From an uncultured Acidobacteriota bacterium (GTDB lineage Bacteria; Acidobacteriota; Thermoanaerobaculia; Multivoradales; UBA5704), in contig CAVWRJ010000021.1 in assembly GCA_963757335.1 (NCBI GenBank), positions 256,853 to 320,852 on the forward strand: a DNA stretch of 64,000 bases. The letters run 5' to 3'. The first letter of the stretch is position 1, and each line of letters begins with the position of its first letter. The translations under genes and the position numbers were made by a program. Under the pieces are notes generated by a model. It ran no database searches. It was given only the letters and a program-made list of their open reading frames with translations, and was not told the origin of the DNA. Positions 11,342 through 61,225 of the stretch are shown in pieces.

Positions 11342-11355
11342 GGGCTAGCGCACCC

Positions 11356-12495: not shown

Positions 12496-12500
12496 GCGGC

Positions 12501-14934: not shown

Positions 14935-15261
14935 GGCGCGTCGGCTCGGCTACGAGAGTGCCGCTTCGAGGTCTTCCGGGGTGAGAATCAGCAGAGTGGC
15001 TTCGCGCAATACATTCGTGCCGAAGAGAGCTTTCAAGAATGCTTCCGCTCAAGGTAGCGGTAGTAATCCCATTCGTCCACATCCTTCAAGGAACCCAGAA
15101 GCTCCCGAGTCTTAGGTGGCAGCTCTTCGGATTCTGTCTCGGAAGGGTGCGCCCAGCGCTTGCCGAAACGGATCAGATCCTCGTCCAGCCGCAATGTGAG
15201 CTTGGATGACATGGGCTTCCTCCTCCAGACGTACCGATCTTAAAGGATTGTACGGCGGAGG

Positions 15262-45078: not shown

Positions 45079-47106
45079 TTAACGGGTGCCCCGGGCCGGG
45101 ATCCTGCCCGCGCTCCACACCCGGCGGAACGCCTCGTAGCCGAGCACCGGCCGGCCGCCCTTGAAGTTGTCCTCGCAATCGACGACGACGCAGGTCGCGG
45201 TACCGCCGAAGCGCGGACCGCGCAGGCCGCGGCCGACGATCTGCTCGTAGAGGACGCGGCTGACCGTGGGGCGCGCCATGATGACGTGGCTCACCCGCGG
45301 GGCGTCGAAACCGGTCGTCAGCACCTCGCAGTTGCACAAGACCCGGAGGGCACCCTGTTTGAACTCGGTCACGATCTGCCGCCTCGTGACGTCGCGGGTG
45401 GTGCCCGAGAGCACGGCGGCGGGGATGCCGTGCTGGCGCAGAAGAAAGGCCATGCACTCGGCGTCCCGCACGCTGGGGCCGAAGTAGAGGATGGAGGCGC
45501 CGGGATCGCGGGCGAGGGGGAGGAGCCGTTCGAGGATCGCCAGGCGCCGGGGGGTGTTGTCGGTGCGGATGGCGAGCACCCGGTCGAGCCGTTCGAGCTC
45601 CTGCTCGGTGAGGAGGGGGAGGGTCGGCGGGCCGGGGATGCGGATGGTCGTCGGGGTCTGGATGACCTCGAAGATGGGCTCGGCCAGGACCCCGATCTCC
45701 TGCAAGCGCTGGCGCGGGTTCTCCCCGAGAGTGCGGAGCGGCTCGACCAGGCGGTGGAAGATCTCCTTGAGCTCGCGCGTCCCCTCCTCGGGGTCGTCGC
45801 CCAGGTACTCCATGCGGAACGGGGTGGCGGTCAGGCCGACGACGGAGACCGGCTGCTCCGGCCGCGCCAGGGCGTCCAGGATGCGGCGGTAGGAGGGGGC
45901 GGCGGCGCGGTGGGCCTCGTCGATGACGAGCAGGCCGAGCGCCGGCAGGAGCTCGCCGAGGATCGCCGCTCCCCCCGTGGACTTGCCGTCCAGGAGGTGG
46001 ACGAGGCGGTGCGGCGTCGTCACCAGCACGCTCGGCCGGGAGAGGATCTGCTGCAGGGTGCCGTGATGCGCCAGGAGGTCCTGGGTGTAGCCGCCCCAGA
46101 AGCGGACGAGGGAGACCGGGCAGACCTCCTCCGACGACTCCCAGACCTGGCGAAAGCAGGTGCAGGCCTGCTCGCAGAGCTCCTCGGTGTGGGCGAGCCA
46201 GAGGACGGTCCCCTGGGTGGCGAGATCGCGCTCGCGGTCGTAGCGGTCGAAGAGCCAGAAGGAGATGCTCTCGACCGCCACCCGGGTCTTGCCGCCGCCG
46301 GTGGGGAGGGCCACGATGCAGCGCCGGCCGAGCGGCTCCTGAAGAGTTTCGAGGAGTCCGCGCTGCACCTCGCGCTGGAACGGCTCCAGCGGTTTCAGCC
46401 GGAAGCGCCCCTCCAGGTACTCGACGTCCGGCAGCGCCTCGGGTGCCGGGATGCCGGCGAGCTCCCCGGGGAAGCCGGCCTGGAGGACGAAGTCGGAGGC
46501 CGAGGACTTCCCCGGATGCCACCGCTTGGGGAAATGCACCGCGGTCGCCCGCGCCACCGCCTCGCGGACGGGGACGGCGCCGAAGAGGTCGATGCCATGC
46601 TGGAGGACGAGGGCGGTGGCGAGCTCGCGCTTGGTCCCCCGCCGGTCGGCGCCCTCGGTCCGCAGCCGGACCTGGCGCAGGGTATAGAGGAGGTCGGCGA
46701 GGAGATCCTCGAGCACCGCATGGGGGAGGAGGTCGACGAGCCGCTCGACGGCGCTCCGCTCCCACCCCTCGCGGAGGAGGAGAGGCCCGGTCGCCGCCTC
46801 GTCCGGGAACCGGCCCCGCCGGTGCCGCGCAGTGAACCCGCCGGTTCCCGGCGCCCCCGGCTCGATGTCCGGATCGCGCGAGAAGCGCGCCTGGATCTCC
46901 CGGTACTCCTCCTCCCCGAGCCCCCAGGCCTCCATCACCTCGGCCTTCGAAAGGGCGCCCTGATCCTGGACGGCGCTGGCGATTTCTGTGAGGAAAGAGA
47001 GCTCCACGGCGTGACCCGGGAGAAATTTTACTCTATCTCGGTGTTCCGGCCCGAGCTCGCGGGGTAAGATCCTGTAGACTGCCCCGCCGGGAGCATCCGG
47101 GAGCAC
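45079..47106 (-). CDS. SF2 DEAH-box helicase (ResIII-like core) with a roughly 270-aa N-terminal domain of unknown function
   Basis: Motif I ALPTGGGKT, motif II VIDEAH, motif III GLTATP, motif VI QIVGRGLRG. The true start may be internal. Confidence 0.75.
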   Translation of the reverse strand: MLPDAPGGAVYRILPRELGPEHRDRVKFLPGHAVELSFLTEIASAVQDQGALSKAEVMEAWGLGEEEYREIQARFSRDPDIEPGAPGTGGFTARHRRGRFPDEAATGPLLLREGWERSAVERLVDLLPHAVLEDLLADLLYTLRQVRLRTEGADRRGTKRELATALVLQHGIDLFGAVPVREAVARATAVHFPKRWHPGKSSASDFVLQAGFPGELAGIPAPEALPDVEYLEGRFRLKPLEPFQREVQRGLLETLQEPLGRRCIVALPTGGGKTRVAVESISFWLFDRYDRERDLATQGTVLWLAHTEELCEQACTCFRQVWESSEEVCPVSLVRFWGGYTQDLLAHHGTLQQILSRPSVLVTTPHRLVHLLDGKSTGGAAILGELLPALGLLVIDEAHRAAAPSYRRILDALARPEQPVSVVGLTATPFRMEYLGDDPEEGTRELKEIFHRLVEPLRTLGENPRQRLQEIGVLAEPIFEVIQTPTTIRIPGPPTLPLLTEQELERLDRVLAIRTDNTPRRLAILERLLPLARDPGASILYFGPSVRDAECMAFLLRQHGIPAAVLSGTTRDVTRRQIVTEFKQGALRVLCNCEVLTTGFDAPRVSHVIMARPTVSRVLYEQIVGRGLRGPRFGGTATCVVVDCEDNFKGGRPVLGYEAFRRVWSAGRIPARGTR

Positions 47107-47114
47107 CGCCGACC

Positions 47115-48270
47115 ATGAAGATCGTCCACACCAGCGACTGGCATGTCGGCCGCCGATGGAAGGGGATCCAGCGCTTGGACGAGCTGGAGGCGGTGCTCGA
47201 ACATTTAGCGGCCTTCATCGAAGAGCACTCCATCGACCTCGTCCTTCACACCGGGGACGTCTTCGAAAGCCGGAATCCCCCTGCCGAGGCGGAGCAGCTG
47301 GTGAACCGGTTCCTCGTCCGCGTGGGCCGATCCGGCGCGCAGATGCTCGTCATCGCCGGCAACCACGACGATCCGCTCCGGCTGGACGCCCGTTCGTTGC
47401 TCACCGAGTTCGTCAACGTCCAGATGCTCGGCCGCCCGCGCCCCGCCTCCCGGGGCGGGACCCTGACCCTCTCGACCCGCTGTGGAGAGAAGGCGGTCGT
47501 CGCGGCGCTGCCGTTCGCCTCCCCTGGAGCCTGGGTGTCGGCGCTGGACGTCGCCGGCGAGGAGGCGAGCGCCCGGGTGAAATACGCTCGCATGTTCGAG
47601 CGCGCGGTTCAGGATCTCTGCGGCGCCTTCAGGCCGGACGCCGTCAACCTCCTCATGGCGCATACGCACCTCGAAGGAGCCCTCTTCGGCGAATCGGAGC
47701 GCCGCGTTCACATCGGCGAGGACTGGGCGGGCTCGCCGGAGGCGCTGCCGTCGACGGCGAGCTACATCGCTCTCGGACACCTTCACAAGCCGCAGAAAAT
47801 CGAGGGGCCGGTGCCCACCTACTATGCCGGCTCGCTTCTCCAGCTGGACTTCGGCGAGGCCGGGGAGGAAAAAACCTTTATCGTCGTCACGGCGTCGCCC
47901 GGCAAGCTCTCGACCGTCGAGCATGTACCTTACGAGGGGGGGCTGCCGCTCGTCGACCTCCGGGCCTCGCTCGCGGATCTCGAGGAGACCGCGGACCGGC
48001 ATCGCACGGGTTGGTTGCGGGTGACGGTCCCACTGACGGCTAAAGATCCCGATCTCAATCGAAAAGTTCGCGAGCTGCTCCCCAACGCGCTCGTCGTCCG
48101 CGCCGAGCTCCCCGAGGCCGAGGAGCCGTCCGACCTCCGGTTGGAGACCGGACTGCCGCCGGTCCGGACACTACGCCGCCTACCATCTCCGGGTGCACCA
48201 GCACGCGGCGAAGGTGGCCGTCCTCGACACCTTTCAGGATCTCTACGACCAGGCCTCCGGGGAGGATTGA
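47115..48270 (+). CDS. sbcD: exonuclease SbcD (Mre11-like nuclease); frameshift near 48175
   Basis: KIVHTSDWHVG, LVLHTGDVF, IAGNHD and AHTHLEG phosphoesterase motifs. The true C-terminus ...FQDLYDQASGED is in another frame. Confidence 0.85.
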
Positions 48271-48273
48271 GCG

Positions 48274-51200
48274 CTGCGTCCCGTCCATCTCACCGTCGAG
48301 GGTCTCGCGTGCTTCCGGGAGAAGCAGGAGATCGACTTCCGCACGCTCGAGCTCTTCGCCATCTCGGGGCCGACGGGAGCCGGTAAATCGACTCTCCTGG
48401 ACGCGATCACCTTTGCGCTCTATGGCGAGATCCCCCGGGTCAACCATCAGAATCGGACCGAGATGATCTCGGCGGCCCGCGACCGGGTCACCGTGGTGCT
48501 GGATTTCGACGTCGGCGCGAGCCGCTACCGGATCGCACGGACCCTCAAACGCAATGGGGCGCAGATGGTTCGCCTGGAGGAGCACGACGGGGTTGGCGGC
48601 AAGGGCTCCAGGAAGAATCTGGCCGACCAGGTTCGTACCGCGACCGATCAGATGGTGCGGATCCTCGGGCTCGGTGCGCCGGCGTTCCTGCAAGCCGTGG
48701 TTCTGCCGCAAGGCGAGTTCGCGAGGTTCCTCCGAGCGCAACCGAGAGACCGGCGCAGCATGCTCCGCACGCTGCTTCGACTCGACGTCTACGAGCGGAT
48801 GCGGGAACGGGCGCAGCGTTCGGCGGCGGCAAAGAAGGGCACGGTCGATTCGCTTCTGAAGCTCCTTGCGGACGAGTACGCCGGCATCGACGAGGCCGCT
48901 GTTGCCGACCTTGAGACGGAGCACGCCCGGGTCGCCCGGTCGCTCGAAGCCGCGAGAAAGAAACGGGACGACATCCAGGCGACACTCGCCCGGCAGCGCG
49001 GCCAGCACGCGAAAACTCGCGAGCTTCGAGAGGTCGAAGAGAGGCGAGCCGCCCTAGAGAAGCAGGCCGAGCAGGTGAGCCGTGAGCGAGCGAGGATCGA
49101 GGCGGCGGCCCGGGCGGTGCCCCTGTTGCCTCTGCTCCAGGAAGCGGCCCGCGCCGCCGCCGCCGCGAAGACGGCGACCCAGGCGGCAGACGTTGCCAAG
49201 GCCCACCATGACTCAGGAGAGATGGATTGGCAGAAGAAGGCTGGCGCCCAGAAGTCAGCGGAAAAGGCCGCCCAAGCGATCCCGACGATTCGTGAGCAGG
49301 TGGCTCGCCTCAACCAGGTGCTCGGTCGGCTTCCTGAACGAGAGCAGCTCCAAGCGGCGATCGAGCGACAGACGCAGGGTGTCAAGGCTCTCGAAGTCGA
49401 GCTGTCCGCGCTCGCTTCGACGGTTGAATCGGCGAAGGCCGTGCAAGCGCAACAGCAGAGAGCCGTCGATTCGGCTCGGCAAGCCGCGGCGGCCGCCGGC
49501 TATGACCCGGAGCTGGACGCGCTCTTCGGAGAGTGTCCGCGACCGAGCGGTCGAGCTTGGCGCTCTGCGCCGGAGCGCTGCCGAGCGCGGCCTTCCGCTC
49601 GCTCGGCAGCGTAAAGCGGTGGAAGAGCAGGCTGGGGAGATCGAGCTGCGGAAGGAGAAGGCGGAGTCTGCCAGGAGGTCCGCGGAGGAGGCCCAGCGCG
49701 GCTTCGAGGCAGCAGAGGAGGCGCTCTCTCTCGCCCACCGCCTGAACGAGGCCCATCACCTCCGCCAGGGGTTGGTTCCCGGCGAACCCTGCCCGGTGTG
49801 CGAACAGCTCGTGGAAACACCCCCTCCGGCCGATCCGGTGCCCGAGCTCGAAGCTGCCAGTGCCGCGCTCCAAGGGGCGCGGGAGAAGCGGAAAGCGGCC
49901 GACGCGCTCGCCCGGCAGATCGAGGCTCTCTGGACGGGCGAACAGGCGAGGCTCCAGGCCGCTCGGCAGAGCCTCGCCGAGCTGGAGGAGCGCTGCGCCG
50001 AGCTGCAAGCTCGCGTCGCCGCCGGCGAGGAAGGGATCTATCGAACGCTCGGCGACCGCGCTCCAGCCGGGGATGCGCTCATCGAGATCGGGATCGAGGC
50101 CTGGATCGAAACCCGCATCGCGGCGCTCGCCAGGAGCCGCAAGGCGAACGACGAAGCGAAGGCGCAACTGGCGACGGCGGAACGGACCCTGGAGAGAGCC
50201 AGGGCCGAGGAGGCCACCGCGCGGGATCGGCTCGGCGAGAGGGAAGCGTCGCTCAAGCGGTTGGAAGAGGAGCGCGGCAGGAGCCTCCTACGGCTCACGA
50301 CGTTGGAGGCCGAGATCCATGCCGTCACCGAGTCTGCCGATCCGGCTGCCGAGGCGAGAAGCTTGGAGGAGCAGATCCGGCAACTGGAAGCGGCCCTCAA
50401 GGCGGCCAACGAGGAGGCGGCAGCCTCCCAGAACCGACGGATGGCGGCCCAGGAGGCGCAACGGCTGACCGCCGAAGCTGCCAGGGCCGCTCGTGAGGAC
50501 GCCACAGAGAGAGCGGAGAGCCGGGATTTGGGAATTGCGCGCGCCGGCTTTGCCGACGAGGCCGCCGTCCGCGGGGCCCTCTTGGACGATGCCACCGCCA
50601 CCCGGCTCCAGGAGCAGGTCCACAGGTATGCGCAGGACCGCCACGCCGCCGAGGCGCGTGCGGCTACGCTGCGAACCGAGTTGGGGGAGGAGCGAGTGTC
50701 CGACGAACAGTTGGCGGCCGCCGAGACGCTCGCGGCGGAATGGACCACCGAAGTGGAGACCGCGCTCGGTCAGGAAAAGAAGCTCGAAGAGCAGATCGGG
50801 CGGATGAAAGAGCGGCTCGAACGGGGAAAAGAGCTCCGCCTCAAGCTGGAAGTCGAGGCGGCGGCTCTCCGCGTCTACGACCTCCTGGCCGGCGACCTGC
50901 GAAGCGACAAGTTCCAGGCGTATGTCTTAGAGGAGGTGTTCACCGAGCTGGTAGCGGGCGCCTCGGCCCGGCTGCTCAAGTTGACCGGGGAGCGTTACTC
51001 CCTGGAGTTCAACGCCGACGAAATCAAAGTCGTCGATCACGACAACGCCGACGAAACGCGGATCAGCGATACCTTGAGCGGCGGAGAGACCTTCCTGACC
51101 TCGCTGGCTCTCGCCCTGGAGCTCAGCGATCAGGTGCAGCGTGCCGTCGGCGCGGTGAATCTCGACAGCCTGTTCATCGACGAGGGTTTCGGCACTCTCG

Positions 51201-51364
51201 ATCCCGACACTCTCGCGCTGGTCGCCGAGACCCTCCAGGGGCTGCGGGTGGGGGGGCGGATGGTCGGCATCATCACCCACATCCCGGAGCTGCGAGACGA
51301 ATTCGCCCAGCAGGTGATCGTGACCAAGCGCCAGGGCTACTCGACCGTCGAGGTCCGCGGGTAG
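48274..51364 (+). CDS. sbcC: exonuclease SbcC (Rad50-like ATPase with CxxC zinc hook); at least one frameshift near 49535; start codon uncertain (CTG directly after the sbcD stop)
   Basis: Walker A GPTGAGKSTLLDAI, long coiled coil, zinc hook GEPCPVCEQ, C-terminal signature LSGGETF and D-loop LFIDEGFGTLD. Confidence 0.85.
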
Positions 51365-51407
51365 GCGGAGACGGTGGAGATAGGCGCTGTGCCGTGAAAA
51401 GCTCGCG

Positions 51408-54400
51408 TCACACTTGGAGGAGCTTCCGCAGCTGCTCTAAGCTCGCCGGGTGCGAGAAGTAGCTGATGTGGTCGCACGCCACCTCCCGTGTGTCCGGCAT
51501 CTGCTTCCACTTCGCGCCCAGACTGCCGATGCTCTTCACGCTCACCGCGATGTCGTTGGGCTCGAAGAGGAACGCCACGGATGTCGTCTTGTGGAGGACC
51601 TTCTTGAGCAGCCGCTCCACGCGCGGCCCGTCCGCGGCCGTGGCGAGCGAGGTGTTCCCCGCGAGCACCACGTAGGGGATACCGGGATCGTCGAGGCTCC
51701 CGAGCGAGGTCAGGAACGCCGAAGCGGGCCTCATCTCATCGAGCGAGTTGTCGATCTTCTCCAGGCCGGCAAAGAGCGACGCAATCGCCGACGCCTCCCA
51801 CGAAATCTTCGTCAGGCCGTTCAAGGCCAGCGAGGCCGCGCCGGTGAGCCAGTCCTCGATCGTCGACCAGCTCGATCCGGCGTTCGGAGTGCCACAAAGA
51901 ATGACGCGCGAGACGATCTCCCGGCCGCCGAGCTTCTCCATGAACCAGCGCGACACGAGCCCGCCCATGGAGTGCGCCACCAGCACGACCTGCTTGCCGT
52001 GCCCAGGGGCGAGGCCGCATGCCGCGAGACGCTCCTGCAAACCCTCGGCGTTTTCCTCGATCGTCGTGTTCAGGTTCTCATAGTCGAACGCAAGGTAGAG
52101 GTCGCCTGGCGCCGGCGCAAGGCGCGCCCCCATCGCTCGCGTGTCCCCGATGATCCCGTGGACGAAGACGACGATACGCCGCGCCTTCGCCACCTTCGCC
52201 TGGAGGTGCGCGAGGTCCGTGTCGTAGGTCACCTTCCCCTGCTCGTCCCATGCCGCCTCGGCGAGCAGCGGGTACCTGTAATCCTTCCCGAGCAGCGGCG
52301 AGGTGAACTTCTGGAAGAGGATCCGGATCGAGCCGCCCAGAGACCGCGAGCGGTTCTTCATCGGGTATGGGAGGCGGGAGATCGTCACCATCGTCTTCCC
52401 TCTCCGGGCACCGCCGCTGCCGAGGATGAGATAGTCCTCCCCGTCGTACGAGACGGCGAGGACGATGTCGCCGTCGGCGGCGACGCTGGGAAGGGTCACT
52501 TCGAGCGGCTGGTCGGGTGTGACGACGGTGGGGTCGACGACCTCGCTCAGCTCGAGGACCGAGAGCGGCGCCGAGGAGCCCCGGCCCGCCGAGAAGACGA
52601 TCGTCTCGCCGGAGTCGGGGGTGCGGAAGAGGGGCGGCAGTATCGCGGCGCCGACGTCACCCCGCGTCTCCGAGAGCGTCGTCAGGCGCGCACGAGAGCG
52701 CAGCGTCGGGTGCGCCCCGATGGCGACTCCCGCCCCGACCTCCGCCGTCGTCGCCGCATTCACTTTGACCCCCGCCGCCGGCTCCACCGTCGTCACAAAG
52801 AGGGTCGTCGTCTGGAAGTCGCGGATCTCGTCGTCGTCGGAGGCCGCCGAGATCGTTCGCCTGCAGCCGCGGGCCAGCAGTCGCTCAAGGGTGTTGGCGA
52901 TCGACTGCGGAGCGGCCCGCCTCATCGGCGCGCCGAGCGCGGAGAGCGCCGCGGGGCTGATGTCGAAGGGAGCCGTGCTGACGATCACCTTCAGGATGTC
53001 CTGCGACTCCGTCCTCCCTTCCCGTCGTAAAGGCCCCGGAATCTGCGCCTTGAGCGCCCTCCCGTCGAGCGCCCACCCCGCGGCGTCGCCGGGCCGCAGC
53101 TTCAACACGCCGCCCTTGACCAGCCCCGGGTCGCACGCGTACAACTCGTCAAGCGCCAGCATGCCGAAGTGCAGGTCTCGCTGTCCGCGGTTCCTGAAGC
53201 GCACGCGGAACTTCGGCGCCACGAGCCCCTTGTCGGTGCGGGTGGCCGTGAGCCGGAGGCTCGGGCCGCCCAACTCGCGCTCCCCCACCTGGTCGGCGAG
53301 CACCGTCACCTCGAATTCGGACGGGTCGATCGCGCTGACCGAATTCTCCAGGTCCCGGAAGTGCAGCCACTGTGCGATGTGCTCCGCGTTCTTCACCCCC
53401 TCCTCGGCGGTCGAGGCCGGCGCCACCAGTTCCCGTCCGTCCGCGCCCCGGAGCAGGCGAAAGCTCCCTGCGGCACATTCGAGGATGAAGTCGGCGCGCT
53501 CCGTGGCCTCCGCCACGTAGGGGCTGCCGGTCAGCGCCCCGCGCGCCGCCGCCACCTCTCCCGCGTCTCCGGTCAACCGGACGGAGTGGGACGACAGGGG
53601 CGTTGTCGTGAGCAACGCCTTGTAGGTTTCACCGCTCTTCACCGTGCCGCGCGTGACGCACAGCCGGCTTCTCGCCCCCTGCACCTCCACGACATCCGCC
53701 ACCGCGACCGCGTCGCTTGCCTTCGCCGTCGCCTTGAGCTCGCCGAGCGCGTCGAAGAGCGCGACGGTGGCGGATTCTCCGGCGACCGGCGCGGGGACGC
53801 CGTGGATCGTCCCGCCGTCCATCCACCAGTCGCCGTCCGACTCCGCCGTGTAGAACGCCTTCGCACGCGACTGGATTGCCCCCTCGATGAACGAACGATC
53901 GAGGTCGGCATCCGTCGTCGCCTCGACCTGCGGCTCCTGCCCCGGGACGTTAGCGATCACCCTCGCGCGCACTCTCGCCGCCAGGTCGCGATAGGTCGGC
54001 GTGCCGGGGCTCTGGCGGAGCGCCTCGAGCAGGAACCACGAGAACGCACCGCGGTGCACTCCCCCGCTGTAGTACTCGGTCGCCTCCTGATCGTCGCAGC
54101 AGGCCGCGAGGAGGACGTGCCGGCCGTCGTCGCCCAAGTCCCAACCGCTCTCGCTCGCGCGCGCCGAGGCGATCGCCTGCACCTCGGGGAGGAACGATGC
54201 AAGCGGCCGGTCGCGCACGTCGAGGGGGAAGCGGCGGACCTTCGCGCCACTCGCCAGCGCCCGCGTGCCGGACCCCGAGTGACACGAATCGAGAATGACG
54301 ACGACGTGCGCGCCCGTCGCCGCGAGCGGCCGGAGGAGCGCCGCGAGTTCCTTGTCGGCGAGGTCCCATCCGCCGGGCTGCCGGCTGTCCCAGAGGACGA

Positions 54401-54716
54401 GCGTCTCGTCGAGCCGATCGGGCTCGACGGTCCAGAAGATCTCGGGGGATCGCTCGCGCGAGCCGTGGCCCGCGTAGTAGAAGAGCGCTGTGTCCGCGGC
54501 GGTCACCTTTCCCAGGTGCGCGCGGAAGGCGGCGATGACGCTCTCGCGCGTCGCCTGCTCGTCGACCAGGGTACGCAGCCGCAGGCGCTCCGGCCTCACC
54601 CGCAGCGTGAGGAGCTCCGCGAACGCCGCCACGTCATTGCGACAGCCCGCCAGCCGGTGCGCAGGATCGAGGTACTTGTCGATCCCCACGAGAAAAGCGT
54701 GAAGGACTTCAGACAT
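51408..54716 (-). CDS. 1102-aa multidomain protein: N-terminal caspase-like peptidase C14 domain, about 600-aa middle region of unknown fold, C-terminal alpha/beta-hydrolase (lipase/esterase-like)
   Basis: Caspase His in LFYYAGHGS and Cys in VVILDSCHSGSG. C-terminal VVFVHGIIGD plus nucleophile elbow LVAHSMGGL. RBS GGGAGG 6 nt before the ATG. Confidence 0.7.
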   Translation of the reverse strand: MSEVLHAFLVGIDKYLDPAHRLAGCRNDVAAFAELLTLRVRPERLRLRTLVDEQATRESVIAAFRAHLGKVTAADTALFYYAGHGSRERSPEIFWTVEPDRLDETLVLWDSRQPGGWDLADKELAALLRPLAATGAHVVVILDSCHSGSGTRALASGAKVRRFPLDVRDRPLASFLPEVQAIASARASESGWDLGDDGRHVLLAACCDDQEATEYYSGGVHRGAFSWFLLEALRQSPGTPTYRDLAARVRARVIANVPGQEPQVEATTDADLDRSFIEGAIQSRAKAFYTAESDGDWWMDGGTIHGVPAPVAGESATVALFDALGELKATAKASDAVAVADVVEVQGARSRLCVTRGTVKSGETYKALLTTTPLSSHSVRLTGDAGEVAAARGALTGSPYVAEATERADFILECAAGSFRLLRGADGRELVAPASTAEEGVKNAEHIAQWLHFRDLENSVSAIDPSEFEVTVLADQVGERELGGPSLRLTATRTDKGLVAPKFRVRFRNRGQRDLHFGMLALDELYACDPGLVKGGVLKLRPGDAAGWALDGRALKAQIPGPLRREGRTESQDILKVIVSTAPFDISPAALSALGAPMRRAAPQSIANTLERLLARGCRRTISAASDDDEIRDFQTTTLFVTTVEPAAGVKVNAATTAEVGAGVAIGAHPTLRSRARLTTLSETRGDVGAAILPPLFRTPDSGETIVFSAGRGSSAPLSVLELSEVVDPTVVTPDQPLEVTLPSVAADGDIVLAVSYDGEDYLILGSGGARRGKTMVTISRLPYPMKNRSRSLGGSIRILFQKFTSPLLGKDYRYPLLAEAAWDEQGKVTYDTDLAHLQAKVAKARRIVVFVHGIIGDTRAMGARLAPAPGDLYLAFDYENLNTTIEENAEGLQERLAACGLAPGHGKQVVLVAHSMGGLVSRWFMEKLGGREIVSRVILCGTPNAGSSWSTIEDWLTGAASLALNGLTKISWEASAIASLFAGLEKIDNSLDEMRPASAFLTSLGSLDDPGIPYVVLAGNTSLATAADGPRVERLLKKVLHKTTSVAFLFEPNDIAVSVKSIGSLGAKWKQMPDTREVACDHISYFSHPASLEQLRKLLQV

Positions 54717-54773
54717 CGTCGACCTCCCGAGATGCCGCCGGGCGCCCTCGCGACCCTACGGAGGGATGTTATT
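54717..54773. promoter_or_regulatory. 57-bp divergent intergenic region between the caspase-hydrolase gene and the CHAT operon
   Basis: Both start codons have strong Shine-Dalgarno sequences (GGGAGG / GGAGGGA). The promoters must lie within or overlap this segment. Confidence 0.3.
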
Positions 54774-56063
54774 ATGCCTCTTATCATGAATATTGGTAGA
54801 TCCGGGGCAGGTATCGACGAGCTTACAGTCGACATCCAGAGCCAAGGCGACCGCACGTTCGTCAAGGTCGAGGATCAGAGTCTCGAATTTGAGGTTCCGT
54901 TCTCGCGCGAGGAGGTCGAGAACGCGCTGGCCGCCGCCTCCCCAAACCACGCCTCAGCTCAGGGGTTACCGTCGCTCGGCTCGACACTCTTCAGCACCCT
55001 GTTCTCGGGCGACCTCGGTCGCGCGCTCTGGCAACGGATGGCGGAGGTGGAGCGTCTTGACCGCGGGCTGCGGCTCCGCATCCTGTCGAACTCGGAGCGC
55101 GCGCAGCACCTGCCCTGGGAGCTCCTGTTCGACCCGTCGCGCGGCGATTTCATGGCGCTCTCCGGCCGCATCGCTCTTGTGCGCACGCGCCCCGAGGGGT
55201 ACAAGCACGAGGAGTCGCCCACGCCGCTCGCGCAGCTGCGCATCCTGGCCGTCGAGGCCGACACGACCGGTGGCAGCCTACGCACGAACGATGACATCGA
55301 GACGCTCGAGCAACTCGCGAGCATGTCCGGCTTGGTCGACTTGACGGTTCTCCGCAGCGCGACGACAGCAGCCCTCGAGCAGGCACTCGAGAAGGGTCCG
55401 TTCCACGTCTTTCACTTCGCAGGGACGGGCGAGGTGCTACCGAAAACGTCCAGGAAGGGTGGCCTCAAGCAGGCGCTCCGGCTGATCGGGTCGACGCCCT
55501 CTGGAACGACATCCTCCGGGGTGCTGCTCAACCGGCACGAGCTCGGCGAAATGCTGCGGCGAGCCAACGTCCGTCTCGCCGTGCTGAATGCCTGCCGCTC
55601 TGACTGGATCGCGCGCAGCGTGGCGCGGTACGTCCCTGCGGTCATCGGGCTGAGGGAGGACGCAGAGATCGAGTCTTGCTTGCTGCTCTGCCGGTCCCTG
55701 TACCAGTCACTCCTGCTGCAGCGGCAGCCGCTCGACCTCGCCGTGACGGCGGCTCGCCAGGCGATGAATCTCGGCGCGCGGCCGGGGATCGCCGACTGGT
55801 GCAAGCTGATCTTTTACCTGCAGCAGAAGGACGGGACTTTCCTTGCGGCGGAGGAGTCGGCACGGCTGGCGGCGGCGAGTCACTCCGCGTCGCCGAAGAG
55901 CAAGGAGTACGCGAAGCTCGCGCGCCTGCTCGATGTCCACGAGGCCAACCTCAACGCCCTGACGAAGGGAGTCGGCGTCGGTGCGACCAACGCACCGAGC
56001 GAGCTCGTGGCCTCGCTGCAGCAGAAGATAGACGAGATTAAACGGCAGCTCGGGGAGGCGTAG
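54774..56063 (+). CDS. CHAT-domain protein with degenerate catalytic histidine (HxAxHG becomes FHFAGTG), Cys retained
   Basis: FHVFHFAGTGEV and LAVLNACRSD in the CHAT fold order. RBS GGAGGGA. Confidence 0.6.
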   Translation: MPLIMNIGRSGAGIDELTVDIQSQGDRTFVKVEDQSLEFEVPFSREEVENALAAASPNHASAQGLPSLGSTLFSTLFSGDLGRALWQRMAEVERLDRGLRLRILSNSERAQHLPWELLFDPSRGDFMALSGRIALVRTRPEGYKHEESPTPLAQLRILAVEADTTGGSLRTNDDIETLEQLASMSGLVDLTVLRSATTAALEQALEKGPFHVFHFAGTGEVLPKTSRKGGLKQALRLIGSTPSGTTSSGVLLNRHELGEMLRRANVRLAVLNACRSDWIARSVARYVPAVIGLREDAEIESCLLLCRSLYQSLLLQRQPLDLAVTAARQAMNLGARPGIADWCKLIFYLQQKDGTFLAAEESARLAAASHSASPKSKEYAKLARLLDVHEANLNALTKGVGVGATNAPSELVASLQQKIDEIKRQLGEA

Positions 56064-56070
56064 GGGAGCC

Positions 56071-57864
56071 ATGACGGAAGGCGATGCGGTAACGCGACTC
56101 CGGTTGCTGACCGGACGGCTCGCCGAACGGAGCGCGCAGCTGCTGGCGATGCGCAGGCTTGTGGAACCGTTGCGCGCCGGAGGGCTCGAGCCGGTCGAGG
56201 GGGAGATTGGTCTTCTCGGCGAGATGGAGGAAAAGCTGCAAGCAGCCGTCGCCCTCCTGGCGAAGACGGAAGACGACCAGCCGCTCGACGCGCTGAACGA
56301 GCAGCTCGACGAGCTGCTGAATGACGTCAGCTGGGAGCTGGAAGAGGACTTGCGGCCCGACCTCACGCGGAAGCACCAGCGGCAGGAGGATCTGCTCCGC
56401 GAAGTCGGCCTGGACCTAAAGACGTGGGAGGGGCGCGTCACGGAGCTCGCGAAGAAGATCGAGACCGCGCGCTTCGAGGGGGCGCCGTTCTCCGCCTTGG
56501 AGGGGGACCTGGAGCGCGCGCGCCGGCTCCTCGCCAGCATCCGCTCGGCGATCTCCGATCGGCTGTACCGCGGCCTTCCCGAGATCCAGGAGTCGGCGAA
56601 GGAGGCGATGCGGCTTCTTGAGGAGAACGTCGCCAAGGCTCAGCCGCAGGTCGAGAAGGTGAAGAAACTGGTGAAGCAGGCCGACCTCCTGATCATGCAG
56701 GTGGGCCTCGCGGATGGCGACTACGAGTATCGCGTGCTGCTGCGGTCGGCCGACCGGATCCAGACCCGCGGGATCAACATCATCCAGGCCGTACGGCGGT
56801 TGAGCCAGGCGGACCGCAACTACATGAAGGACCTGTTGGCGCAGCTCACCAGCAGGATGAACGAGGAGATCCGGGCCGTACACGCCGCTGCCCACCCCGA
56901 GTCACCCAGCCAGTTGCGGACCATCCTCCCCGCCGAAGATTCCTCTGGCGCTCCGGCGCGCAATACGACCGAAACGCTCGCCGTGCTCGGCGAGTTCATG
57001 TACCGGCTGGTGATCCCCGGAGAGATGCAGCGATATTTGCAACGCGAGGCTTGGTCGTTCAGCATCACGACGAACGACCTCGAGCTTCCGTGGGAGCTGA
57101 TTTCGTTCGAGCGACCGGAGGAGGAATCGAACGCCCCGGCGTATCTCTGCCTCGAGCGCTGCATCTCGCGCATGCCGCTGGGCGGCGTCTTCCCGCCGCC
57201 GCCCCGCCGCCGCTCGGCGGGGGCGCCACGGAAGCGACGGATGCTGCTCATTCACTCCGACCCTAAGGGGGACCTACCGGCCGCGGCTCGGGAGGCGGAC
57301 GCCATCGCTAACGCGCTGTCGGACGAGTTGGAGATCGACCGCGTCGATCCCGATAGGGCGACTAACGCGAACCTCAACGACATCCTGATGGGGACGCCGT
57401 TCGACTTCCTCCACTACGCGGGGCACGCCTACTTCGACAAGAAGGACCCGAACCTATCCGGGCTACAGCTCAAGGATGGCCTGCTCACGGCGGAGAAGAT
57501 CCGGCGGCTGAACAAGGGAGGCTCGCTGGTCTTCCTCAACGCCTGCGAGTCGGGGACGGTGGCGCGCGACAGCGAGGCGCAGCAAGTGTCGTACCTGCTG
57601 ACCAACCCTGAGCCCGTGGTCGGGCTGGCGTCGGCTTTCGTCTACAGCGGGGCCCTCGGGTGCGTCGGATCGCTGTGGCCCGTGTACGATCGCCCGGCAG
57701 CGGAGCTGGCGGTGAAGTTCTACGAGCACGTGCTGTTAGGCGAGCCGACCGGCGAGGCGCTGCGCAAGGCACGCAATGACATCCGGGCCGCGTATCCGCG
57801 GGAGGTGACGTGGGCGGGGTACGTCCTGTACGGGGATCCGACGTTCCGTATCACCGAGACATGA
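56071..57864 (+). CDS. CHAT-domain peptidase with a roughly 350-aa N-terminal coiled-coil/helical domain
   Basis: DFLHYAGHAYF (His-His pair) and LVFLNACESG (Cys). 7-bp gap after the upstream gene. Confidence 0.75.
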   Translation: MTEGDAVTRLRLLTGRLAERSAQLLAMRRLVEPLRAGGLEPVEGEIGLLGEMEEKLQAAVALLAKTEDDQPLDALNEQLDELLNDVSWELEEDLRPDLTRKHQRQEDLLREVGLDLKTWEGRVTELAKKIETARFEGAPFSALEGDLERARRLLASIRSAISDRLYRGLPEIQESAKEAMRLLEENVAKAQPQVEKVKKLVKQADLLIMQVGLADGDYEYRVLLRSADRIQTRGINIIQAVRRLSQADRNYMKDLLAQLTSRMNEEIRAVHAAAHPESPSQLRTILPAEDSSGAPARNTTETLAVLGEFMYRLVIPGEMQRYLQREAWSFSITTNDLELPWELISFERPEEESNAPAYLCLERCISRMPLGGVFPPPPRRRSAGAPRKRRMLLIHSDPKGDLPAAAREADAIANALSDELEIDRVDPDRATNANLNDILMGTPFDFLHYAGHAYFDKKDPNLSGLQLKDGLLTAEKIRRLNKGGSLVFLNACESGTVARDSEAQQVSYLLTNPEPVVGLASAFVYSGALGCVGSLWPVYDRPAAELAVKFYEHVLLGEPTGEALRKARNDIRAAYPREVTWAGYVLYGDPTFRITET

Positions 57865-57992
57865 ACTGCAGGCGACGCCTCCCGGCGTTCGCGACAGTGC
57901 TCTTTTCGAGTCGTCACCCCAATCCAGCGCCGCCGCAGCTCTCTAGCAATGATCGCCATCGCCGCTGAATTAGGGTGTAACTGCTGTCCCGT

Positions 57993-58411
57993 CAGCCTCG
58001 GCCCGGCTGCTCAAGTTGATCGCGGAGCGTTACTCCCTAGAGTTCAACGCCGACGAAATCAGGGTCGTCGATCACGACAACGCCGACGAAACGCGGATCA
58101 GCGATACCTTGAGCGGCGGAGAAACCTTCCTGACCTCGCTGGCTCTCGCCCTGGAGCTCAGCGACCAGGTGCAGCGTGCCGTCGGCGCGGTGAATCTCGA
58201 CAGCCTGTTCATCGACGAGGGTTTCGGCACTCTCGATCCCGACACTCTCGCGCTGGTCTCCGAGACCCTCCAGGGGCTCCGGGTAGGGGGCCGGATGGTC
58301 GGCATCATCACCCACATCCCGGAGCTGCGAGACGAATTCGCCCAGCAGGTGATCGTGACCAAGCGCCAGGGCTACTCGACCGTCGAGGTCCGCGGCGCCT
58401 CTGATTCGTAG
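57993..58411 (+). pseudogene. duplicated 3' fragment of sbcC, about 97% identical to 50979-51364
   Basis: Alignment of the two segments shows about 10 substitutions in 420 bp. Encodes ...RYSLEFNADEIRVVDHDNADETRISDTLSGGETF...VEVRG with no N-terminal part. Confidence 0.8.
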
Positions 58412-58448: not shown

Positions 58449-59339
58449 CTAAGCGACCGGGGCGCTGAGGCAGCGCTGCAGCAGGCGAGCGTCTCCGAGC
58501 CGCTCCGCGTAGGCAGCGAAGGCGGGGGTGAGGCCGCGCCAACGGAGCTCGTCGACATCGCGGAAGAGGAGCGCGTCGGTCCGGAGCGTCGCCAGATCCT
58601 TGAACCGCAGCGCCAGATCGCGGTCCCGCAAGACCTCGGGAGGGAAGCTCTCGAGGATGCCGTAGCGGTTGAGGAGCCGTGCCGCCGTCTTGGGGCCGAT
58701 TCCAGGAATGCCTGGATAGCCATCCGCGGCGTCGCCGACGAGAGCAAGAAAATCGGGGATCAGAACGGGGTCGATCCCGAACTTCTCGCGGACTCCTTGT
58801 GCGGTGAAGATCTTGTTCCCTCGGCGGTCGACCTGCACCACCCGGTCCTCGCGGACGCACTGCGCCAAGTCCTTGTCAGGTGTCCAGATGCAGACCTTCT
58901 GCACTCTTTTGTCGGCTGCGGCGATGCGGGCGGCGGAGGCAAGCGCGTCGTCCGCCTCGAGCTCGACCATGGGCCAGACAGCGACGCCCATGGCGGTGAG
59001 AGCCTCTTCCAGCGGGTGGAACTGCGCGAGGAGCGCGCGCTCAACTCCCTCTGCCGTCTTGTAGCCGGGCCAGAGACGGTTCCGGAAGGACAGGATGACG
59101 TGGTCGGTCGCCACGCCGAGGTGCGTCGCCCCCTTCTCGATCATTTCCAACACCGTATGGAGGACGCCGGTTACGGCCCCGAACGGCGCATTCTTTCCCT
59201 GATTAAAGCGGCGCCGGCCGTAGTAATGGCGGAACAGCTCGTACGTGCCGTCGAGAAGATGAACCATCATGGCGTCACTCGGTTCGTCGGCAGGCAGATC
59301 ATGAGCTCCGAAGTCTACGACGCGAGTCAAGGAGTCCAC
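58449..59339 (-). CDS. FEN-like 5'-3' exonuclease (Xni/ExoIX-like, PIN plus H3TH)
   Basis: H3TH motif GYPGIPGIGPKTAARLL and an acidic-residue PIN region. Confidence 0.8.
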   Translation of the reverse strand: MDSLTRVVDFGAHDLPADEPSDAMMVHLLDGTYELFRHYYGRRRFNQGKNAPFGAVTGVLHTVLEMIEKGATHLGVATDHVILSFRNRLWPGYKTAEGVERALLAQFHPLEEALTAMGVAVWPMVELEADDALASAARIAAADKRVQKVCIWTPDKDLAQCVREDRVVQVDRRGNKIFTAQGVREKFGIDPVLIPDFLALVGDAADGYPGIPGIGPKTAARLLNRYGILESFPPEVLRDRDLALRFKDLATLRTDALLFRDVDELRWRGLTPAFAAYAERLGDARLLQRCLSAPVA

Positions 59340-59407: not shown

Positions 59408-59809
59408 ATGCTGGAGCTTTTACGAGAACGGCTCGCAGAGCTCCCCGAGGTGCGCCTCGCCGCCGCCTTCGGCTCGGTCGCCCGGAGCGAGGAGAGACCG
59501 GGGAGCGATCTCGACCTTGCTCTCCTCCTTGAGACTGTCTCCATCCCTCGGCGGTGGGAGATCGAAGCGGCCCTCGGGCGCGCGGCTGGCCGGGAGGTCG
59601 ATTTCGTCTACCTGAACGAGGCGCCCCCTCTGCTGCGCTTCGAGATCGCGAGGGATGGCGTGCTCCTGCTCGAGCGGAACCCGGGCGACTGGTCCGATTT
59701 CCGCGCCCGAGCCATGATCGACTGGTGGGACTGGGCGCCGACGGCGAAGGTGATTACCGACACGATCCTGCGCCGGCAGAAGGAGAAGCTGGAACGTGGT
59801 CAAGCCTGA
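59408..59809 (+). CDS. nucleotidyltransferase-domain protein (MNT/MntA-like), no HepT partner found
   Basis: GSVARSEERPGSDLDLALLL (GS...SDxD) motif. Confidence 0.6.
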   Translation: MLELLRERLAELPEVRLAAAFGSVARSEERPGSDLDLALLLETVSIPRRWEIEAALGRAAGREVDFVYLNEAPPLLRFEIARDGVLLLERNPGDWSDFRARAMIDWWDWAPTAKVITDTILRRQKEKLERGQA

Positions 59810-59818
59810 GGTCGCCTC

Positions 59819-61225
59819 CTATCTCCGCGCTCCGGCCCGCACCCGCCGCCTCGAGAGCACCGCGCCGGACGCCGCCAAGAGGATCACCAGGATCACCATG
59901 CCCACCGGCCCGAGCGCCGGGACGGCGACGGCCGGGAGCGGCGCGAAGACGTGGACGGCGCCGCAGGCCCGGCCGCTCGAGGGGGGCGGGCAGGGCTCGA
60001 AGTTGGCGCCCGCGAGGGCGAGGTCGCCGCTGTTCGCGAGGGCGACCGAGGTCCCGAGCTGAGAGGAGTCGACCGGGGCTGCGGCGGTCAGCTCCTGCCT
60101 CTGGGTCCAGGTCCCGGCAGCGTTGGCGAAGACGAAAACCGCCCCGCACTGGCCAGCGCCGCAGGGCTCTCCCGAAGCACTGATGAGGGCGGTTCCGGCA
60201 TCGTCGGTCAAGGCGACGGAGATGCCGAATTCGGCGAACGCTGCCTCAGTTGTGGGGGCGAGCCGTGCCACCTGGCTCCAGGCGGAGGCGCGGGTGAAGA
60301 CGTGCGCCGTGCCGCAGTCCTGCCCCGCGGCGCAGTCGAAGGAGGCCCGGCCGACGAGGGCGTAGCCGCCGTCCCCGGAGAGGGCGACCGACCAGCCGAA
60401 ATCGGAGTGGGCCTGGGGATCGGCGGCGGTGAGCTTCTTAATCTGGAGCCAGCTCGCGCCGCCCCCCATGTAGAGGTAGGCCGCCCCGCAGCCGAACCCC
60501 AGGCCGCAGGTGTCGGCGGGCTTGCCGACGAGCGCTGTCGTGCCGTCGGCGGAGAGGGCCACCGACTCGCCGAAATTGTCGGCGGCGGCGAGGTCCAGGG
60601 GCGTCAGCTGGACGTCCTGCGTCCAACTGGCACCGCCGCCGGTGAAGACGTAGGCGGTGCCGCAGAAGATGCCGGCCGGGCAGCCGGCGAAAGGCGCCCC
60701 GACGAGCGCCTCGGTGCCGTCGGCCGAGAGGGCGACGGCAGAGCCGAATTGGGCGTTGGTCGAGGCGTCGGCGGCGGTGAGCTTTGCCGCCTGGCTCCAG
60801 ACGCCGCCGGAGCGGGTGAAGACGTAGACCGCGCCGCATCCCGTACCCGCGAGGCAGCTTTTGCCGGGCGCCCCGATGAGGGCGGTCGAGCCGTCCGCCG
60901 AGAGGGCGATCGCCCTGCCGAAGCCGTCATTCTGGGCCGCGTCGGCGGCGATGAGCTTGGTGCCGCCGCTAAAAGTGCCGCCGTTGCCGAAGTAGACGTA
61001 GACCGCGCCGCAGTCGAGGCCGGCGGCACAGCTCGCCTGGGTCGCCCCGGCGAGGGCGATAGCGCCGTCGCGCGACAGCGCCACCCCGACGCCCAACTCA
61101 TCGAGAGGCATGGCGTCCGGAGCGGTCAAGACCTCGCGCTCGACCAGGGGCAGCCCGGCGCTCAAGAGGGGCGACGTTACGGCGAGCAGCAGGGCGAAAA
61201 CGTACGCGGCCGTCCGAATCTGCAT
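59819..61225 (-). CDS. FG-GAP repeat (integrin-alpha-like beta-propeller) protein with signal peptide and C-terminal TM anchor
   Basis: At least 7 repeats of the form FG-SVALS-DG-TALVGAP...CGAVYVF. Confidence 0.75.
   Translation of the reverse strand: MQIRTAAYVFALLLAVTSPLLSAGLPLVEREVLTAPDAMPLDELGVGVALSRDGAIALAGATQASCAAGLDCGAVYVYFGNGGTFSGGTKLIAADAAQNDGFGRAIALSADGSTALIGAPGKSCLAGTGCGAVYVFTRSGGVWSQAAKLTAADASTNAQFGSAVALSADGTEALVGAPFAGCPAGIFCGTAYVFTGGGASWTQDVQLTPLDLAAADNFGESVALSADGTTALVGKPADTCGLGFGCGAAYLYMGGGASWLQIKKLTAADPQAHSDFGWSVALSGDGGYALVGRASFDCAAGQDCGTAHVFTRASAWSQVARLAPTTEAAFAEFGISVALTDDAGTALISASGEPCGAGQCGAVFVFANAAGTWTQRQELTAAAPVDSSQLGTSVALANSGDLALAGANFEPCPPPSSGRACGAVHVFAPLPAVAVPALGPVGMVILVILLAASGAVLSRRRVRAGARR

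Follow-up and report, generated by a model that had tools for sequence, protein, structure and literature searches.

We analysed a 64,000-nucleotide (nt) stretch of DNA, below called the window, from an uncultured bacterium of the Acidobacteriota lineage Thermoanaerobaculia (assembly GCA_963757335.1, contig CAVWRJ010000021.1, positions 256,853 to 320,852). In the window the DNA-repair gene sbcC is followed by a 6,634-bp segment with three genes for caspase- and CHAT-type proteins, and this island is in turn followed by a second, displaced copy of the 3' end of sbcC. We propose that the island was added by integrase-independent recombination anchored in the conserved 3' end of sbcC, that the resident end was orphaned downstream in this event, and that the cargo is a conserved three-gene module of the suicide type. 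We place the probability of this reading at roughly 0.6.

Two sbcC ends, an empty site and a donor-type locus

The island lies between the copies of a direct repeat, copy 1 being the 3' end of the full-length sbcC and copy 2 the displaced fragment (Table 1). The copies align over 401 bp without gaps and differ at 11 positions (97.26% identity). Variants of copy 1 include AA at 51027-28 and G at 51224, and variants of copy 2 include T at 58020 and GG at 58062-63. An earlier inspection of the letters, below called the sequence-only reading, had reported a repeat of about 420 bp at about 97% identity. The repeat is real; the coordinates given for it were inconsistent (386 vs 419 bp), the correct length being 401 bp. 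The same reading let the repeat run past the stop codon of sbcC, which did not hold. Copy 1 diverges one base ahead of the TAG stop (51362-51364), sbcC ending VEVRG-TAG, and copy 2 stays in frame for four more codons (VRG-ASDS*) to another stop at 58411. The tail of copy 2 is of the native sbcC type (compare VRG-AADL* in the relative L081, described below). All 11 mismatches fall in the first 297 bp of the repeat, and the final 104 bp (51257-51360 in copy 1) are identical (P about 0.04 under uniform scatter). The open reading frame (ORF) of 131 residues in copy 2 is probably a relic; a Thr-to-Ile change (LTGERYS to LIAERYS) at a residue invariant in 120 SbcC homologues fits a non-functional fragment.

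Relatives of the locus were retrieved by anchoring on SbcC; anchoring on the exonuclease gene to the right of the island did not reveal the empty site. L081, a 404-kb metagenome contig of the Joint Genome Institute (JGI), is about 94% identical at the nucleotide level to window positions 38879-64000, on both flanks of the island, and its SbcC is 92% identical in amino acids (aa). Here the order is helicase, sbcD, sbcC and exonuclease, the last lying 39 bp behind sbcC, and the 401-bp segment, to which both copies align, is present once (L081 12497-12897). L081 is the empty site. The claim that the island interrupts an otherwise contiguous repair neighbourhood was borne out by this locus, and the island is a genuine insertion/deletion polymorphism. 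In a three-way alignment, copy 2 continues into the tail and intergenic sequence of L081, and copy 1 leaves L081 after CGCGG.

A further relative, L162, belongs to the Thermoanaerobaculia metagenome-assembled genome (MAG) GCA_036277235.1. From sbcC to the gene 3 stop at 57864 it aligns colinearly with the window, at 86% identity over 9.2 kb, and the left junction is the same. No second sbcC copy was found in the 6.8 kb beyond its module, and its right flank encodes an M1-peptidase/ABC-2 protein, a DUF1902 (HicB-like) protein and a TIR-WD40 protein, the last two at L162 1-974, a few kb past the module. The sequence-only reading had counted as evidence against an insertion any related genomes that have these three genes here but lack the repeat, and L162 is such a genome. 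Because the empty site and both physical junctions are documented as well, we do not take L162 as a refutation, and read it as the donor-type arrangement in a relative more distant than L081. A conserved anchor, a displaced fragment continuous with the native flank, and a genome of donor type, the features expected of homology-anchored addition, are all present. We also observed that the region behind sbcC in L162 resembles a larger defence-type island.

The island was also recovered in an independent assembly. A Logan contig of run ERR11571141 (6,763 bp) encodes exactly the three island proteins and, judged from gene coordinates, equals window positions 51331-58093, spanning both island junctions. 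The first 31-mer to cover the left-junction base at which the copies begin to differ starts at 51331. The last 31-mer to cover the copy-2-specific GG (58062-63) ends at 58093, and 59 bp common to both copies follow. Since these ends are the branch points that a graph of k=31 requires if both diverged copies exist, the reads contain both junctions. At the right junction of this contig the island end meets an sbcC fragment with an abrupt start at -401 and with the copy-2 variants.

The tails of sbcC were compared among 12 sequences. In most relatives the gene end reads VEVRG-x-A-E-x-A*, and both a short and a long form of it occur. The long form, with a premature TAG, is shared by copy 2 and L081; the short form, with an identical GCG-to-GT change and the TGA lost, is shared by copy 1 and L162. 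At the synonymous sites 51088 and 51130, the only two informative ones, copy 1 goes with L162 and copy 2 with L081. Two allelic classes at the island ends next to 104 identical bp are the signature of recombination at a homology border. The homologue P0241, from a third lineage and encoded on a 7.7-kb JGI contig, is 93% identical (aa) to the SbcC of the window and 91% to that of L081. It also ends VEVRG*, and island-type sbcC ends therefore circulate among close relatives. In 120 homologues the last 120 or so residues of SbcC are nearly invariant, and the residues after VEVRG are hypervariable in sequence and length, a pattern that would fit frequent recombination with its border at the gene end. 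At the DNA level the 401-bp segment is 85-97% identical across 10 relatives.

How the island may have come to lie behind sbcC

The sequence-only reading had suggested a homology-driven addition of DNA that carried its own sbcC end from a related donor, and this is still the best-fitting model; the two copies differ in tail class. In the course of events that we propose, a related lineage would already have carried the three-gene module straight behind a short-tailed sbcC, as L162 does now, and its DNA would have entered a genome with sbcC directly before the exonuclease, as in L081. Recombination would have used the strongly conserved final few hundred bases of sbcC, adding to the resident sequence and not replacing it. 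One candidate pathway is a single Campbell-type crossover of a circular intermediate with a 401-bp sbcC fragment, in which a conversion tract around the crossover would account for the 104 identical bases. The other, homology-facilitated illegitimate recombination, would combine one homologous end with an illegitimate join placed 401 bp ahead of the resident stop codon. The predicted product is sbcC (copy 1 with the donor tail), the module, the orphaned resident end (copy 2 with the native tail) and the exonuclease. RecA-mediated recombination between the direct repeats could remove the island cleanly and would restore the arrangement of L081. The topology of target, insert and duplicated fragment, with both copies chimeric and with reversal possible through the repeats, is that of Campbell-type insertion-duplication. 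Unlike such insertions, which are known mainly from laboratory suicide plasmids, the window contains no circular form or replicon functions that we could see.

A second orphan end was found in L088, whose SbcC is about 78% identical (aa) to that of the window. Its displaced fragment (11166-11430 vs 10487-10751, 92% identity) is about 265-320 bp long, different from the 401 bp in the window, and the cargo before the exonuclease is also different (an esterase fragment, a DUF4145 protein and a TPR protein). The orphan is 92.1% identical to the sbcC of its own genome and 93.6% to the sbcC of another relative, L083, and the functional end is 96.5% identical to L083. These identities suggest that the incoming DNA brought a new functional sbcC end. 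Among 83 sources with an SbcC C-terminus, a second sbcC fragment occurred only in the window and in L088 (two of some 10 close relatives, none of some 73 distant SbcC loci). An 86-residue ORF right behind sbcC in L088 is also duplicated (10747-11007 and 12364-12624; 92% identity), the copies lying 1.6 kb apart and nested with the duplicated sbcC end; these nested duplications suggest successive additive events at one site. Just past the exonuclease of L088, at 16789-17481, there is a tandem array of about 33 copies of a 21-bp unit with at most 94% identity between registers. Separately, the 90%-identity cluster of the orphan 131-residue ORF contains short SbcC C-terminal ORFs on long contigs, namely P0243, P0245 and P0256 (141 aa on 29.5 kb, 73 aa on 14.9 kb and 79 aa on 24 kb), which may be further orphan sbcC ends.

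Several observations weigh against our proposal. Neither copy of the repeat is measurably closer to L081, and the resident and the incoming copy cannot be assigned with confidence. The 11 differences between the copies could have accumulated in place. The divergence of the island genes from L162 at four-fold sites (about 19-20%) is near that of sbcC (about 24%), which may indicate an old presence of the island and its loss from L081. The integrated state is distinguished from a free circle plus an empty site only by phasing over the 104 identical bases. As for the cargo, a promoter scan found 0 promoter-like sites and no sigma-70 consensus in the 57-bp intergenic region between genes 1 and 2, and PADLOC gave domain-level matches only, no system model being matched over its full length.

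We considered the possibility that the island with its flanking repeats goes back to the common ancestor of the window genome and L081, that the copies diverged in place, and that L081 lost the island by homologous recombination between the repeats. We regard this as unlikely, if still a serious alternative. The alignment and tree of the two copies gave a star-like trichotomy with L081: neighbour-joining analysis of the 401-bp segment placed copy 1, copy 2 and L081 together at 95% bootstrap and gave the node joining the copies 51%, with distances of 0.027 (copy 1-copy 2), 0.035 (copy 1-L081) and 0.032 (copy 2-L081). Each of the three has 5-7 private changes, and 1-2 changes are common to both copies; this star-like pattern speaks for ancestral presence. 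The claim that the 3% divergence pointed to a related donor is plausible, and an old duplication in place fits the distances equally well. Between the window and L162, four-fold sites are about 80-81% identical in the island genes and about 76% in sbcC; given this similar synonymous divergence, the module has probably been at the site in the clade about as long as the lineages have existed. A deletion between the repeats would moreover give exactly the structure of L081 with its native tail. However, a 401-bp repeat of at least 97% identity around 6.6 kb should vanish quickly, not last through about 1.4% divergence per copy, and the short- and long-tail classes argue for two different sbcC ends having been brought together. 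Ancestral presence also leaves the origin of the duplication unexplained, and in L088 the functional end is closer to another lineage than to its own orphan. A sliding-window scan of sbcC against L081 and L162 for an upstream crossover showed no clear switch, and the protein polymorphisms R/K, S/A and F/Y were uninformative as donor markers, recurring throughout the 120 homologues.

Site-specific integration by a tyrosine or serine recombinase acting in trans, with the island as an integrase-less satellite resembling a cis-mobilizable element (CIME) and the repeat as attL/attR, is highly unlikely. The direct repeats and the perfectly identical 104-bp block beside the left junction would suit it, and in other phyla the same module adjoins Phage_integrase genes. 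The island also resembles integrase islands at the 3' ends of tRNA and protein genes in its insertion at a 3' end, its element-borne target end, its direct repeats and its empty site. On the other hand, it differs from them in having no integrase. That the segment is free of one, as the sequence-only reading had stated, was confirmed: Pfam found no recombinase domain in the three island genes, and tblastn with three tyrosine integrases returned nothing below E=2.5 across the 64-kb window, whose flanks are colinear with L081, likewise without an integrase. No tRNA was found in the window. The repeat is diverged and far longer than the usual att cores, and the extreme tail of the gene is not restored. 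The boundaries are not reproducible, as the orphan of L088 differs in length and cargo and L162 carries the module at the same junction without a second repeat. The different length and cargo of the L088 orphan, the lack of an integrase and the hypervariable SbcC tail argue for recombination at a homology border and not at a fixed att site. The comparison with site-specific, tRNA-targeting islands made by the sequence-only reading is not supported.

An assembly artefact, be it a chimera of one strain that has the module behind sbcC and another that has sbcC next to the exonuclease, or a collapsed or mis-phased repeat, is extremely improbable. The 580-kb source contig is metagenome-assembled, related strains of both types are present in metagenomes (L081, P0241, P0249), and the unexplained +1 frameshifts, one each in sbcD and sbcC, are a hint of imperfect sequence. 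Nevertheless, the right junction is a physical joint with copy-2 variants that neither strain type alone could yield, and it lies inside the independent Logan contig, the ends of which fall at the expected k-mer branch points. The repeat-flanked island is probably not an artefact. Three further candidates were rejected: a repeat pair of a diversity-generating retroelement (no reverse transcriptase domain by Pfam; mismatches C/T, G/C, G/A, A/G and G/T without adenine bias), a transposon with a target-site duplication (no transposase by Pfam, 0 inverted repeats, a duplication of 401 bp) and a compositional island (GC equal to the flanks).

Returning to homology-anchored addition, orphan 3' ends in type VI secretion system (T6SS), rhs and cdi loci have been attributed to homology-facilitated illegitimate recombination (Kirchberger et al. 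2017, PMC5361080). As in the rhs, cdiA and T6SS loci, the conserved upstream region of a gene serves as recombination anchor in the window, no integrase is involved, the cargo arrives with its own gene end and pushes the old end downstream, and the length of the fragment varies by event. Unlike in those loci, a housekeeping DNA-repair gene, in place of one for a polymorphic toxin, serves as anchor, the cargo does not pair a toxin tip with an immunity gene, the displaced end has no plausible reuse, and orphans of sbcC are rare, as counted above. The kind of event is known from polymorphic-toxin loci; its occurrence at a housekeeping repair gene is new.

The gene set downstream of sbcC differs in each of eight contexts compared (window, L081, L082, L083, L085, L087, L088 and L162). 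Behind sbcC lie a DUF7379 protein in L082, an AAA ATPase in L083, a lanthipeptide-type cluster in L085, and a sigma factor with a LytTR protein in L087. The DUF7379 protein of L082 (3779-5290, 503 aa), immediately downstream of sbcC, is a different one from that of the island and has no caspase domain. Integrase-less 'core defence hotspots' between conserved genes have been described for Pseudomonas and E. coli. Their turnover is attributed to double crossovers in the two flanks, a route by which no duplication is left behind. The sbcC locus resembles them in its variable, often defence-like gene sets beside a conserved core gene without hallmarks of mobile elements, and differs from them in that the window retains the footprint of an additive event. 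The entry of defence-type genes into integrase-less hotspots is usually inferred from patterns of presence and absence alone. Here the footprint can be read from the displaced 401-bp end, the empty site in L081 (about 94% identical), the donor-type arrangement of L162 and the independent second orphan of L088, and it makes the entry pathway testable in uncultivated soil Acidobacteriota.

A bolder reading, in which the island with its 401-bp sbcC fragment would be a self-sufficient, integrase-free mobile cassette and the module a new anti-phage protease cascade, seems to us quite unlikely. Recombination between the repeats would release a circle of cargo plus an sbcC 'homing arm', and the transferred circle would enter related genomes by RecA-mediated crossover in the ultra-conserved sbcC end. 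If this were true, the ends of conserved core genes would serve as general docking sites for defence cassettes.

The three cargo genes

The sequence-only reading of the cargo as caspase, CHAT and hydrolase proteins agrees with Pfam, which finds a C14 peptidase and a hydrolase in gene 1 and a CHAT domain in each of genes 2 and 3. The N-terminus of gene 1 is metacaspase-like, with His84 and Cys145 kept in 119-120 of 120 full-length homologues, and it matches the PADLOC 'caspase' model (E=4.7e-27, model positions 3-196 of 453). In the hydrolase domain the nucleophile elbow GHS916MGG, Asp1055 and His1083 are kept in about 119 of the 120. An AlphaFold model built with 97 sequences (predicted local distance difference test 85, predicted template modelling score 0.76) has a beta-rich middle region of about 550 aa. 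Foldseek matched the N-terminus to plant and protozoan metacaspases, MALT1 and GSU0716, and the C-terminus to the lipase BlEst2 and the Legionella phospholipase PlaB. The C-terminal domain is, on this model, of lipase/phospholipase-like fold.

The catalytic His of the CHAT fold is missing from gene 2 in all five orthologues compared (AG[T/S/M]G instead of AGHG) and the Cys is kept; gene 2 is probably a non-catalytic adaptor. In gene 3, which has about 140 full-length relatives, His452 and Cys492 of the CHAT domain are invariant in the alignment, and the protein is predicted to be an active CHAT protease. It has a weak PADLOC match to BovA (positions 507-666 of 711, E=1.5e-7); a SAVED_CHAT match in the island had E=0.009. 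In P0294 and P0295, gene-2-like and gene-3-like parts are fused in proteins of about 1,020 aa, the first CHAT of which lacks the Cys too. Terminator-like sites were no commoner than in shuffled sequence (2 found, 2.7 expected).

We suggest that gene 3 would act as a sensor or initiator protease together with the gene 2 adaptor, and that the pair, once triggered, would proteolytically activate gene 1, in which the loops 148-156 and 186-189 are candidate sites of cleavage by gene 3. The metacaspase and lipase-like DUF7379 domains of gene 1 would then damage proteins and membrane lipids, the outcome being suicide or abortive infection. This division into sensor, adaptor and executioner is drawn by analogy with type III-B CRISPR, caspase-like Thoeris and predicted conflict systems, and by the same analogy the cargo probably serves conflict or defence, as a protease cascade whose effector is a lipase. 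In type III-B CRISPR, a SAVED-CHAT to PCaspase protease cascade acts in bacterial immunity (bioRxiv 10.1101/2023.06.23.546230). A caspase-like type IV Thoeris immune system has been described (bioRxiv 10.1101/2024.10.24.620036), and conflict systems with caspases and lipid-attacking hydrolases have been predicted (Kaur et al. 2021, PMC8195603). Like SAVED-CHAT/PCaspase, type IV Thoeris, Borvo BovA and the systems of Kaur et al., the module encodes caspase and CHAT proteases with intact His-Cys together. One protease plausibly activates another, and the alpha/beta-hydrolase is predicted to attack membrane lipids. A variant with a STAND NTPase partner exists, and the module occurs on plasmids and beside integrases. 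Unlike these systems, the module has no SAVED, TIR, CRISPR or gasdermin partner by Pfam, one of its CHAT proteins is a pseudo-protease, and in its effector the beta-rich region links a caspase to a lipase-like DUF7379 domain. DUF7379 was not mentioned in the literature searched, and we found nothing specific to this module in the literature on CHAT, caspase and hydrolase defence operons.

The three genes occur together, in the same divergent arrangement, in unrelated contexts: in L163, in the Bryobacteraceae loci L164 and L165, on the contig of P0124, and in a planctomycete beside an integrase. In an Acaryochloris variant an nSTAND1 NTPase replaces the large CHAT protein. Homologues of gene 1 number more than 800, in Acidobacteriota, Planctomycetota and Cyanobacteria and on plasmids of Rhizobium and Deinococcus; full-length ones with similar partners lie on plasmids of Rhizobium, Deinococcus, Anabaena and Nostoc. 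Culturable carriers of the unit include Rhizobium ruizarguesonis (pRlX4, U8P68_37865-37880), Acaryochloris marina S15 (plasmid CP064925) and Anabaena sp. 90 (plasmid NC_019428). A 6.5-kb Logan contig (L166) carries the module at 83% identity and reaches sbcC on neither side. A functional link between the module and SbcCD was rejected: the module adjoins sbcC in the window and in L162 alone, and not in L163-L165, L167, L168 or the contig of P0124. The cargo defines a widespread unit in which a caspase-lipase fusion is combined with a pseudo-CHAT adaptor and a partner of the CHAT or STAND type. It adds a new member to the caspase/CHAT conflict systems; the three-gene unit is not in current defence-system catalogues at the system level and is testable in culturable hosts.

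Features of the locus and neighbouring genes

The coordinates of the locus are collected in Table 1. From the ORF list and Pfam, the gene order is helicase, sbcD, sbcC, the three island genes, the 131-residue SbcC ORF, the exonuclease, a nucleotidyltransferase of the MNT type and an FG-GAP gene. The window is of high GC content (about 65-72%), and the GC of the island (0.64-0.72) equals that of its flanks. The repeat finder detected 0 inverted repeats in the island. No homologue of its 130-bp right end was found in L162, in any retrieved locus or in the rest of the window.

Table 1. Positions of the sbcC locus, the island and its genes in the window
Feature	Position	Strand	Basis
DEAD/ResIII helicase	45079-47106	-	Pfam
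sbcD, Mre11-like nuclease	47115..48270	+	Pfam Metallophos and SbcD_C; three-frame translation
sbcC, Rad50-like ATPase	48275..51364	+	Walker A (GKST) at about 48382; Pfam SbcC_Walker_B
Direct repeat copy 1, 3' end of full-length sbcC	50960..51360	+	Repeat finder; pairwise and three-way alignment; base-by-base comparison
Inserted segment, 6,634 bp	51361..57994		Absent from L081 (blastn)
Left junction, vestige of short-tail sbcC end (G-TAG-GCG-GAG-ACG-GTG)	51361..51381	+	Tail comparison of 12 sequences; L162 alignment
Gene 1, 1,102 aa, Peptidase_C14, beta-rich middle, DUF7379 alpha/beta hydrolase	51408..54716	-	Pfam
Gene 1-gene 2 divergent intergenic region, 57 bp	54717..54773		GGAGG-type ribosome-binding sites on both strands
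Gene 2, 429 aa, CHAT fold	54774..56063	+	Pfam CHAT
Gene 3, 597 aa, helical N-terminal region of about 380 aa and CHAT	56071..57864	+	Pfam CHAT (2.7e-36), Peptidase_C25
Island right end, 130 bp	57865..57994		GC-rich hairpin-like inverted repeat right after gene 3 stop
Direct repeat copy 2, displaced (orphan) sbcC 3' fragment	57995..58395	+	Same alignments as copy 1
Orphan ORF, 131 aa, SbcC signature/Walker B/H-loop half only	58016..58411	+	Pfam SbcC_Walker_B (1.7e-10); annotated gene in source record
5'-3' exonuclease, FEN/ExoIX-like, native right-hand neighbour of sbcC	58449..59339	-	Pfam 5_3_exonuc_N and 5_3_exonuc; adjoins sbcC in L081

Both sbcCD genes contain insertions relative to L081. 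In sbcD there is an extra A at 48168 (from the indel list), outside a homopolymer, which shifts the frame of the last 35 or so codons. In sbcC an extra C at 49527, also outside a homopolymer, shifts the reading frame, and no ATG, GTG or TTG start lies immediately behind the sbcD stop. Either sbcCD is decaying in the window genome or the insertions are indel errors in the assembly.

Homologues of the exonuclease are 69-93% identical (aa) across Acidobacteriota, Gemmatimonadota, Burkholderiales, Verrucomicrobiota and Chloroflexota. In 80 exonuclease-anchored GTDB loci (L001-L080), sbcC, sbcD and the other window neighbours were found within 10 kb in none, and in the best of them (L001, 93% identity at the nucleotide level) the similarity to the window ends at the gene boundaries. 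Housekeeping genes are not usually distributed in this way, and horizontal spread may be the cause.

The nucleotidyltransferase gene adjoining the exonuclease (59408-59819) encodes 133 aa with an MNT domain only. Its counterpart in L081 encodes a 268-residue MNT and HepT protein, about 450 bp (L081 14338-14787) being missing from the window. The FG-GAP gene that follows (59819-61225, minus strand) contains four diverged internal repeats of 174 bp at 60287-60857, which are FG-GAP units and are present in L081 too (15243-15938).

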